Source of the DNA: Candidatus Aenigmatarchaeota archaeon
GTDB taxonomy: Archaea; Aenigmatarchaeota; Aenigmatarchaeia; Aenigmatarchaeales; DAIDAN01
Direction of reading: 5' to 3'
Assembly: GCA_049303335.1 (NCBI GenBank)
Contig: JBAQNA010000022.1
Span: forward strand, 1,135-65,134
DNA length: 64,000 bases
A model generated the notes under the pieces. The model worked only from the letters and a program-made list of their open reading frames with translations. It had not been told where the DNA came from and made no database searches. The position numbers were made by a program, and so were the translations under genes. Numbering within the stretch: position 1 is the stretch's first letter; every line of letters begins with the position of its first letter. Below, piece by piece: positions 21,677-23,848 of the stretch.

Positions 21677-23848
21677 ATTCCGGTTGATCCTGCCGGAGGT
21701 CACCGCTATCAGGGTTCGGCTTAACCATGCGAGGCAAGATGTTACAATTTCAGCAATGAATTTGTGGCGTCTGTCGTACTGCTCAGTAACACGTAGTTAA
21801 CCTGCCCTTTTCTCCGGGACAATCCCGCGAAAGTGGGGCTAATACCGGATAACTGTCGGATACTGGAATGTTCCAACGGTAAAAGCTTCGGCGGAAAAGG
21901 ATGGGACTGCGGCTGATTAGGCTGTTGTCAGTGTAATGAGCCTTTTTTCTTTCTTAATGCGAAAAATAAAAGAAAGAAATGATAACTTTAAATTTTCAAC
22001 AAAACAAAAAGACAATGTGAGTTCAAATGTCGAGAGTAAAACTTCCAAGAATATATTACGGAATTCATTCATGCTGTAAGAATGGAATTCCGGAGTATGA
22101 TGCTATTAAGAATATTGGAATTCCATATTGTCCTGTATGCTTAAATGAATTAGAACCAATGCAAAAAACCATAAATGAAACAAATATTCTTTTTCTGAAG
22201 GAAAGAGGCGTTACAGAACTGACAAACCGATAATCAGTATGGGCCATGAGAGTGGATGCCCAGAGATGCCTTCTGAGACATGAAGGCAGGTCCTACGGGA
22301 CGCAGCAGGTGCGAAAACTTCCCAATGCCTGAAAGGGTGAGGAGGGAACCCTGAGTGGCTGCGCTTTTAGCGCAGTCTTTTGCCTAGTCCAAACAACTAG
22401 GCGAATAAGTGGTGGGTAAGACGGGTGCCAATGAGCTTTTCTTTCAAGAAAGAAAATCTCAATCAAAAGAAAGATATTATAAAGAAAAGTTCTGCACATG
22501 CCGCCGCGGTAATACCCGCGCCACGAGTGGTGATCGCGATTATTGGGCCTAAAGGGTTCGTAGCCGGTTTGGCAAGTTCCTGGTGAAATCTCTCAGCTAA
22601 CTGAGAGGCGTGCTGGGAATACTGCCGGACTTGGAACCGGGAAAAGTCAGAGGTATTCGTCGGGTAGGAGTTAAATCCTTTAATCCGACGAGGACCAACG
22701 GTGGCGAACCAAAATTCGCTGCGTGATTTTAAAGCAATTTAAGCAGCGCATTTTGCGTCAGGGCGTCTGACTGGAACGGGTTCGACGGTGAGGGACGAAA
22801 GCGTGGGGAGCAAATGGGATTAGATACCCCAGTAGTCCACGCTGTAAACGATGTCCGTTTGATGTTGCAAGTCCTATAGGGGCCTGCAGTGTCGGAGCGT
22901 AGGTGTTAAACGGACCGCCTGGGGAGTACGGCCGCAAGGCTGAAACTTAAGGGAATTGGCGGGGGAGCACACAAGGGGTGGAGGCTGCGGTTCAATCGGA
23001 TTCAACGCCGAACATCTCACCAGGAGCGACAGCAGTATGAAGGTCAGCCTGACGGGTTTACCAGACGCGCTGAGAGGAGTTGCATGGCCATCGTCAGCTC
23101 GTACCATGAGGCGTGCCGTTAAGTCGGTTAACGAGCGAGACCCACGCTGTTAGTTGCCACCGCAATCTGCGGATTGCGAGCACCCTAACAGGACCGCTGG
23201 TGAAAAACCAGAGGAAGGAGTGGGCGACGGTAGGTCCGTATGGCCCGAATCTCCTGGGCTACACGCGGCCTACAATGGTTGGGACAATGCGATGCAACGC
23301 CGAAAGGCGAAGCTAACCGCCTAAACCCAACCTTAGTTCGGATTGGGGGCTGAAACTCGCCCCCATGAAGCCGGAATCCCTAGTAAGCGAACGTCATAAA
23401 GCCTTTTTCTTTCTTTAGTTCGAAAATACAAAGAAAGAAAAATGCTTGCCAAAAAGAAAGAAAAAGCAAGCAAGAAAGAAAATGGCATGAGTTCGTTCGC
23501 TGAATACGTCCCTGCTCCTTGCACACACCGCCTGTCAAACCATGCGAATGGATTTTTGGTGAGGCTCTCCCCGCAACCCAGCAATGGGAGCGGCGAAAGT
23601 CGAGCCAAGAGTCTGTAAGTGGGGTTAAGTCATAACAAGGCAGGCAGCAGTTCTATTACCTCGGTGATTAAAGATAGGCGAAAATATCGCTTCGGCGAAA
23701 TGTTTTCAGGAAGGTGAAATGAGAGGTTTTTGCGATAGGGACTGAAAAGGAAAGCGCATAAAAGCGTTAGTACGATTCAATCCGTATCCCGAGCTGCCGT
23801 CTTATGAGAAGGTAGCCCTACCGGAAGGTGGGGCTGGATCACCTCCTT
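21677..23848 (+). rRNA. 16S rRNA, about 2.17 kb, expanded by at least five insertions
   Basis: Starts ATTCCGGTTGATCCTGCCGGAGG and ends GGATCACCTCCTT. Conserved blocks recognised: GCCGCGGTAATAC, GGATTAGATACCC, AAACTTAAAGGAATTGGCGGGGGAGCAC, TGCATGGCC, GAATACGTCCCTGC and CACACCGCC. Inserts at about 21937-22225, 22433-22497, 22705-22775, 23395-23505 and 23665-23800. Confidence 0.9.
22027..22233 (+). CDS. small Cys-rich (zinc-ribbon-like) ORF inside the first 16S insertion
   Basis: 68 aa, with HSCC at residues 15-18 (CC at 17-18) and YCPVC with Cys at residues 35 and 38. Low-GC composition unlike the flanking rRNA. The last codons overlap the closing helix of the insert. Confidence 0.3.
   Translation: MSRVKLPRIYYGIHSCCKNGIPEYDAIKNIGIPYCPVCLNELEPMQKTINETNILFLKERGVTELTNR

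Follow-up and report, generated by a model that had tools for sequence, protein, structure and literature searches.

The 16S ribosomal RNA (rRNA) gene in the analysed stretch of Candidatus Aenigmatarchaeota DNA (64,000 nucleotides (nt), called the window here) carries in the loop of helix 11 (h11) an insert that is near certainly a canonical archaeal bulge-helix-bulge (BHB) intron. Its interior contains an open reading frame (ORF) of 68 codons, ORF68. The overall reading that we somewhat favour, on the grounds of sequence comparison, is that this interior represents a dispensable cargo cassette and ORF68 an orphan small ORF. Unless a locus is named, coordinates are those of the window, forward strand.

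The window carries an archaeal rRNA operon (16S, Rfam RF01959, 1304 bits; 23S, RF02540), and its 16S rRNA gene is broken by at least five inserts. In the Rfam covariance-model alignment, which also shows inserts in the 530 loop and elsewhere, the helix-11 loop after GUAAUG holds 279 extra nt where the model expects 1, and the GC content of this insert is 0.29 in comparison to about 0.55 in the 16S exons. An earlier note on this DNA had described an insert of about 290 nt at 21937-22240; the insert is real, and its exact limits as an intron are 21939-22216 (278 nt). The host gene and the elements of the intron are the following, a slash within a bulge marking the predicted cut, and one within an exon sequence the point of insertion, here and below.

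21677-23849 (+): host gene, 16S rRNA of an archaeon; its match to Rfam stops at 23664, and the gene truly ends at 23849 (3' end GGATCACCTCCTTA)
21924-21932 (+): outer (exon) helix of the BHB motif, 5' strand GUUGUCAGU, which is the helix-11 stem; outer helix 6/6 paired
21933-21936 (+): central 4-bp helix of the BHB motif, 5' strand GUAA (exon 1), pairing with UUAC at 22211-22214
21937-21939 (+): 5' three-nt bulge UGA, predicted cut UG/A, last exon nucleotide 21938
21939-22216 (+): BHB intron in the helix-11 loop, 278 nt, GC 0.29
21940-21979 (+): family-specific 5' module GCCUUUUUUCUUUCUU-loop-AAGAAAGAAA, from sequence comparison and fold
22197-22209 (+): inner helix of the BHB motif, 3' arm GAAGGAAAGAGGC, 8/8 paired, conserved in loci L096, L026, L095 and L015
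22211-22217 (+): central helix, 3' strand UUAC (22211-22214), and 3' bulge AGA (22215-22217), cut AG/A
22218-22227 (+): outer helix, 3' strand ACUGACAAAC (exon 2), from the minimum free energy (MFE) fold and the BHB scan

A BHB motif scan of the insert gave one best solution (p=21938, q=22216), in which the central helix is paired in 4/4, the outer in 6/6 and the inner in 8/8 positions. The MFE fold of 21918-22232 recovers the same motif (z=-3.24), and the two helix strands quoted in the earlier note (21924-21941 and 22211-22227) are indeed paired in it. The pyrimidine arm of the 5' module (21940-21952) can alternatively pair with 22197-22209, whereby the inner helix of the BHB motif is formed. 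The predicted ligation product GUGUAAUGAACUGAC, i.e. GUGUAAUG-A-ACUGAC, fits the length of the Rfam model (1 nt in the loop), and the intron-less Aenigmatarchaeota loci L051 and L083 read GTGTAA(T/C)GAACCGAC, which equals this product. The predicted junction of the circular intron is GUUACAG/AGCCUUUU. No group I or group II intron or other Rfam family was found in the insert at the gathering threshold, and the intron alone gave only noise (E>=0.29, far under the gathering score). We assign the insert to the BHB introns, as the earlier note had supposed it to be an intron, because of the canonical hBHBh' motif, the splice product matching intron-less relatives and the presence or absence of the intron among close relatives.

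A search with the 16S exon pattern led to 94 DPANN loci, and one with an exon-plus-intron pattern to 2 metagenome contigs. Five sequences, the window included, have an intron at the exact h11 site, with conserved termini and differing interiors.

Window: h11 intron of 278 nt, interior with ORF68
L096: h11 intron of 139 nt, interior without ORF
L026: h11 intron of 144 nt, interior without ORF
L095: h11 intron of 371 nt, interior with an ORF of 58 amino acids (aa)
L015: h11 intron of at least 439 nt, interior with a Cys-rich ORF of 51 aa
L051 and L083: no intron at the h11 site

Intron content varies between strains whose 16S exons are 97-99% identical. L096 has introns that the window lacks, including a 690-nt 23S intron (12680-13360) with a double-LAGLIDADG ORF of 217 aa, and L097 carries after GCCGCC a 16S 530-loop intron (3952-4839) with an ORF of 295 aa matching PF14528 (LAGLIDADG); both of these occupy sites that are empty in the window. 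In the L015 h11 intron, an apparent second terminal hairpin module (494-660; AGCCTTTTTCTTTC-CACCCTTTTTCTTTTTGGTGCGAAAGTG...) is nested in the first, which seems to be an intron-in-intron insertion.

The interior of the h11 intron may be described as a strain-specific, dispensable cargo cassette of fast turnover, built of a leader followed by a short ORF. The other three loaded introns (h11 of L095, h11 of L015 and one in the 23S gene of the window) have a homologous leader of about 60 nt with a TATA-like box, a Shine-Dalgarno (SD) sequence and an ATG, followed by different ORFs of 51-58 codons. Aligned with one another, the four leaders show a mean column identity of 70% and have an invariant TTAAAT box in common.

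21968-22026 (+): leader of the h11 cassette, homologous to the three other cassette leaders; TATA-like TTTAAAT at 21987-21993, weak SD-like GTGAG at 22017-22021
22027-22233 (+): ORF68 (MSRV...LTNR), 68 codons, ATG at 22027, TAA at 22231-22233
22060, 22084 and 22117, span 22060-22124 (+): in-frame internal repeats GGAATTC(A/C), encoding GIH, GIP and GIP
27948-28373 (+): paralogous cassette in a large 23S insert; leader CTTAAATAG, strong SD AAGATGGTGA, ORF from 28005 (MCKECGVTLNEYEEALRTIE...)

The leaders of L095 and L015 end in UAAGGUGGUU followed by the ATG, and UAAGGUGGUU is complementary at 8/10 positions to the 3' end of the 16S rRNA; the SD of the 23S cassette is related (UAAGAUGGUGA). In the h11 cassette, the SD-like GTGAG sits 5-6 nt before the ATG of ORF68. 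The 23S cassette lies in the loop of a 17-bp helix (27950-27966 / 28189-28205), and its ORF (MCKECGVTLNEYEE..., from 28005) has no stop of its own, as is the case for ORF68, and continues through structured GC-rich RNA to 28373.

From the homologous ATG, each of the four cassettes keeps its sense-strand frame open for at least 51 codons, with P=0.006 for the h11 cassette of the window and P=0.002, 0.013 and 0.004 for the others (dinucleotide shuffles). Under a conservative null drawn from real sequence, 5.9% of the non-genic ATGs in low-GC parts of the window open frames of at least 51 codons. From the shuffle values of the single cassettes and this per-ATG null, the joint probability of four open frames lies between about 5e-10 and 1e-5. 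Since 4/4 frames stay open from the homologous ATG, the cassettes as a class look coding. The ORF of L095 is an annotated gene in an NCBI record; a search with it returned only itself, in three source contigs of the same strain.

Moreover, ORF68 (CPVCLNELEPMQKTIN) aligns with the 23S cassette ORF (CGVTLNEYEEALRTIE) at the protein level (Smith-Waterman P=0.002, and P=0.008 with Cys masked, both by shuffling; BLASTP E=0.009), with no significant similarity at the DNA level; corrected for six comparisons, this likeness is no more than suggestive. The motif NE[YL]E..[KR][TK]I[NE] occurs in three of the cassette ORFs and is unique in 1.4 million six-frame residues, which may be taken as no more than a hint, the motif having been defined after the sequences had been seen. 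Structured RNA as the cargo was rejected, the ORF bodies folding no better than their shuffles (z=-0.2 to -0.9). An origin of the cargo by copying from elsewhere was likewise rejected, as a blastn comparison with the window and with about 100 DPANN loci yielded no match.

The low-GC 16S insert contains the 68-aa frame exactly as it had been quoted earlier (22027-22233). Unique cargo makes up about 22027-22179 (about 51 codons); the frame then runs as far as 22216 through the conserved 3' structural arm (residues 52-63), and 22217-22233 belongs to 16S exon 2 and supplies the last five codons and the stop. The unspliced precursor would give the 68-aa product ending in ...GVTELTNR, the frame has no stop in the linear excised intron, and the circular intron would give 77 aa ending in ...GVTEPFFFLNAK. 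ORF68 holds a duplication of about 30 nt, TAAGAAT(ATT)GGAATTCC, and its GGAATTC repeats are in frame in 3/3 cases. An avoidance or enrichment of GAATTC was considered and rejected, since the window has 31 sites where 38 are expected and the local cluster stems from the internal duplication.

Under the strongest alternative, the frame of ORF68 is open by chance in an AT-rich interior that codes for nothing, a spacer or loop remaining from the evolution of the intron, and the Cys pairs carry no meaning; we regard this as quite possible, though short of the favoured explanation. Several observations that weigh against a cargo gene speak for it. The frame is missing from the same intron in the closest relatives, namely from L096, whose 16S exons are 99.4% identical to those of the window and whose h11 intron nevertheless bears no cargo, and from that of L026; therefore, ORF68 is not a conserved part of the intron. 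In tblastn searches, just the last 11-17 residues match relatives, a stretch for which the conserved 3' arm of the BHB and exon sequence code. ORF68 has no stop of its own, the arm and the exon encoding its last 17 codons, a quarter of the supposed protein. Its SD is degenerate (CAAUGUGAGUU as against UAAGGUGGUU). An ATG-initiated ORF of at least 68 codons in the six frames of the insert departs only marginally from chance (P=0.038; any open stretch of that kind, P=0.16; dinucleotide shuffles), and the codon-usage score is indistinguishable from that of chance ORFs in shuffles (P=0.13). Frames of at least 51 codons follow 5.9% of the non-genic ATGs in low-GC parts of the window, as given above. 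Internal duplications are equally possible in non-coding DNA, and the model of the peptide by AlphaFold2 (AF2) has a predicted local distance difference test (pLDDT) score of 46.8. Each cargo ORF is known from one strain only, and apart from the pair described above the four are not significantly similar.

Database searches point in the same direction. ORF68 had no match in Pfam (E<=10), NCBIfam, PHROGs or the PDB, none in a word-indexed collection of 5.8 billion proteins or by exact-sequence look-up, and a full HMMER search against 1.84 billion representatives gave just two weak matches, both treated as spurious. P0002, which was inspected, is a Cys-free tandem-repeat protein aligned in 8 stretches; P0003 (3293 aa, E=3e-4) was called spurious as well, the inspection covering P0002 alone. 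Scans of genome, metagenome and viral collections with back-translated ORF68 revealed no related locus, and DNA scans of the viral collections with the leader and the junction gave chance 17-mer matches only, in AT-rich phage DNA. Against a chance frame stand three observations: ORF68 begins at an ATG homologous to the SD-led starts of its sisters and is open from there at P=0.006, the same sense-strand pattern recurs in 4/4 loaded cassettes, and its similarity to the 23S cassette ORF is found at the protein and not at the DNA level.

The earlier note had proposed that the insert encodes a protein. The homologous ATG and the frame open from it agree with this proposal, whereas the want of a homologue, the codon score, the degenerate SD and the absence from L096 and L026 do not. 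It had also held that the proposal would fail if the frame were absent or frameshifted in close relatives with the same insert; L096 has the intron without the ORF, and by that standard a functional intron protein is refuted as a conserved feature. We consider ORF68 as probably a strain-specific orphan mini-gene. Whether it is now, or was very recently, translated into a small orphan protein appears about evenly balanced.

ORF68 might also be what is left, after decay, of a homing-endonuclease gene (LAGLIDADG or His-Cys box) that formerly mobilised the intron, a possibility that is improbable in our opinion. Indeed, the lineage has rRNA introns with LAGLIDADG ORFs (those of L096 and L097 described above), cycles of gain, decay and loss are the known fate of such genes, and the empty forms in L096 and L026 resemble deletion derivatives. 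On the other hand, when the four loaded introns were compared by blastx with these two LAGLIDADG proteins, no match was better than E=0.1, and ORF68 matched 0 Pfam families at E<=10 and likewise 0 in NCBIfam and PHROGs, so that no profile of a LAGLIDADG, HNH, GIY-YIG or His-Cys box domain was hit. A dedicated common leader and a uniform size of about 51-58 codons are moreover unlike random pieces of a 200-aa gene.

The ORF68 product had been called zinc-ribbon-like in the earlier note on account of its Cys pairs, a description that found no support. There is a single CxxC (CPVC, residues 35-38), the other pair being an adjacent CC (residues 16-17), so that two CxxC knuckles are not present. 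The AF2 single-sequence model consists of helices only and shows no ribbon, its pLDDT being too low to settle the question of a ribbon fold. Cys is lacking altogether in the sister ORF of L095, and the 23S cassette ORF has a single CxxC. Neither the AF2 model nor the sequence search of the PDB provided support for a zinc ribbon, which we regard as unsupported; that ORF68 binds metal seems unlikely. Zinc-finger micro-proteins of small size that carry a pair of C(P)XCG motifs are known in archaea, with haloarchaeal examples. ORF68 is like them in its size of about 50-70 aa, its CPxC and its four Cys, and differs in that its one CxxC is followed by L instead of G and its second pair is adjacent.

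The following course of events may be proposed. From established archaeal splicing, the tRNA-splicing endonuclease EndA would excise the h11 intron from the pre-rRNA, and the ligase RtcB would join the 16S exons and circularise the intron. ORF68 might be translated from a transcript that starts internally, from the precursor before splicing (68 aa) or from the intron in its circular form (77 aa). The protein, if real, would most likely serve the persistence of the intron as selfish cargo, a role like that of the homing-endonuclease genes borne by introns, though the likeness would not extend to the fold.

The h11 intron is one copy of a family with common pyrimidine/purine termini (GCCUUUUUCUUUC...GAAAGAGGC), members of which are found in the 16S, 23S and transfer RNA (tRNA) genes of the window and show turnover between near-identical strains. 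A 5' module AGC(C)UUUU(U)CUUUC...GAAAGAAA opens the introns in h11, in the 530 loop and in helix 43 (h43), several 23S inserts and one tRNA insert. The window has 10 occurrences of it and L096, a close relative, has 8, whereas about 90 other DPANN loci are almost free of it. Three further introns of the 16S gene were delimited.

22431-22499 (+): sister intron of 69 nt in the universally conserved 530 loop (GUGCCA/.../GCCGCCGCGG), canonical BHB
22709-22761 (+): BHB intron of 53 nt between GGCGAA and GGCG (near E. coli 722), canonical BHB, lacking in L096
23400-23492 (+): family intron of 93 nt in h43, central helix UCAU/AUGA, bulges AA/A and GU/U

The 530-loop intron (BHB with central helix GUGC/GCAC, bulges CA/A and AU/G) is identical in L096. 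An insert in this loop would be intolerable in a functional ribosome; therefore, a splicing activity on this pre-rRNA is required. This intron interrupts GTGCCA/GCCGCCGCGGTAA, the target of universal 515F-type primers, and the organism is therefore probably missed or mis-sized in standard 16S amplicon surveys.

That the h11 insert is not removed at all and persists in the mature ribosome as an expansion segment on the surface-exposed helix 11 is very improbable: tips of helix 11 do accept size variation, with 36-60-nt extensions in the DPANN loci L005, L023, L035, L060, L074 and L089, but the insert has an exact canonical BHB with 3-nt bulges, the same intron family splits tRNA genes and the essential 530 loop, from which the introns have to be removed, and the length and content of the insert vary between strains with 99.4% identical exons.

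Further inserts and split genes were observed in the window. An insert of about 165-170 nt (23643-23812, +) sits close to the 3' end of the 16S gene, flanked by AACAAGG and UAGCC. Removal at its best BHB candidate (23643-23805) would still leave a surplus of 9 nt. Group I introns have been reported at position 1498 of the small-subunit rRNA (SSU/1498) in Micrarchaeota (PMC6125680), but the present insert is short and has no Rfam match. The 23S gene extends from 24916 to about 29350 (+), far beyond the end of its Rfam match at 27968, because many inserts break it. The 23S exon pieces were placed by comparison with L018 and L037, so that the insert junctions are approximate: 26143-~26290, 27073-27289, ~27680-27750, ~27942-28499, ~28548-28592, 28667-~28870 and ~29194-29335. 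The insert at 28667-~28870 lies between GUCGUGA and GACAG, a site used by I-CreI-type elements.

An unannotated intron-split tRNA gene at 13554-13800 (+) resembles tRNA-Ser (anticodon CGA, long variable arm) and is called by neither ARAGORN nor Rfam. It has inserts after the anticodon loop (~13595-13658) and in the T-arm (~13686-13762), the latter opening with the rRNA-intron module AGCCCTTTTCTTTTCGGTGCGAAAGTG. The tRNA of the 16S-23S spacer (24293-24462, +) is split by at least two inserts, one of them inside the T-loop (GGGTTCAAAT/GAGTTTTTCT...GTGAAA/ATCCCAGCC), and received no ARAGORN call. The tRNA and rRNA genes of this organism are under-called by standard tools. An archaeal RNase P RNA at 30616-30891 (+) scored 66 bits, under the Rfam gathering score of 84; either divergence of this RNA or an interruption within it may account for the low score. 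A dCTP-deaminase-like gene adjoining the rRNA operon shows 100% identity with a protein in GenBank that comes from a metagenome-assembled genome named 'Candidatus Aenigmatarchaeota archaeon'.

A 16S gene of Micrarchaeota (L038 4769-5300, JACRGE010000087.1) has its h11 loop split by a short intron in the same place, and contains several mini-inserts built on CUUUUUCUUUU/AAAAGAAAA hairpins. In view of these mini-inserts, the pyrimidine/purine hairpin style may be widespread in DPANN rRNA introns.

To our knowledge, archaeal rRNA BHB introns are either empty or carry LAGLIDADG homing endonucleases. I-DmoI and I-PorI are such endonucleases of archaeal rRNA introns. BHB introns with LAGLIDADG ORFs have been described in the 16S and 23S rRNA genes of Thermoproteales and Desulfurococcales (PMC4496867). 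The h11 intron shares with them a BHB at the junction, a conserved location in the rRNA, an ORF in the interior, sporadic presence and a GC content below that of the host gene. It differs from them in that its ORF has 68 codons (about 51 of them unique), no known domain and its own TATA-like/SD leader, in that the cargo is wholly different between sister introns, and in that the host is a DPANN archaeon. Neither the h11 loop nor the site after A520 (that of the sister intron) is among the 11 loci catalogued there (PMC4496867). The ORF-less mini and remnant BHB introns (categories ii-iii of PMC4496867) are matched by the 139-nt form of L096, the 144-nt form of L026 and the introns of 53-93 nt in the window, whereas the h11 copy of the window is larger by about 190 nt of cargo, and its frame is intact. 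In the mini and remnant introns the termini are conserved just as far as the BHB needs, as in the empty forms here.

Paralogous, similar BHB introns at many non-canonical sites of one genome are a feature that the window shares with Thermoproteales tRNA introns, and this pattern implies spread by copying. Intron transposition among Thermoproteales tRNA genes was reportedly described by Fujishima and colleagues. Unlike those introns, the family in the window is common to rRNA and tRNA genes, and some of its copies have ORF cassettes.

A further likeness exists to the rRNA insertions of the Candidate Phyla Radiation (CPR, Patescibacteria; PMC11270868) and to archaeal rRNA group I introns (PMC6125680), which also concern small-genome, episymbiont-type lineages with rRNA genes full of removed inserts, some of the inserts being protein-coding. 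Those inserts are group I/II-like or bear LAGLIDADG genes, whereas the h11 intron has no ribozyme signature and would follow the BHB route, which depends on protein enzymes.

If ORF68 is a chance frame only, the window presents one more intron-rich DPANN rRNA operon. If the cassettes are real, a conserved leader combined with unrelated orphan ORFs of about 50-60 codons would constitute a different kind of intron cargo, and might supply a reduced DPANN genome with micro-proteins that arise de novo or evolve fast. A bolder idea, which we hold to be rather unlikely, is that Aenigmatarchaeota BHB introns act as vehicles of self-contained cassettes, each with a promoter-like box, an SD and a start codon, for hypervariable orphan micro-proteins, which are swapped, decayed and lost within species and translated from the excised circular intron RNA; ORF68 would then be a 77-aa non-endonuclease product of a natural protein-coding circular RNA in an archaeon. 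In comparison to the known archaeal rRNA introns and the CPR inserts, what is new is the occurrence of small non-endonuclease ORFs behind a common leader.

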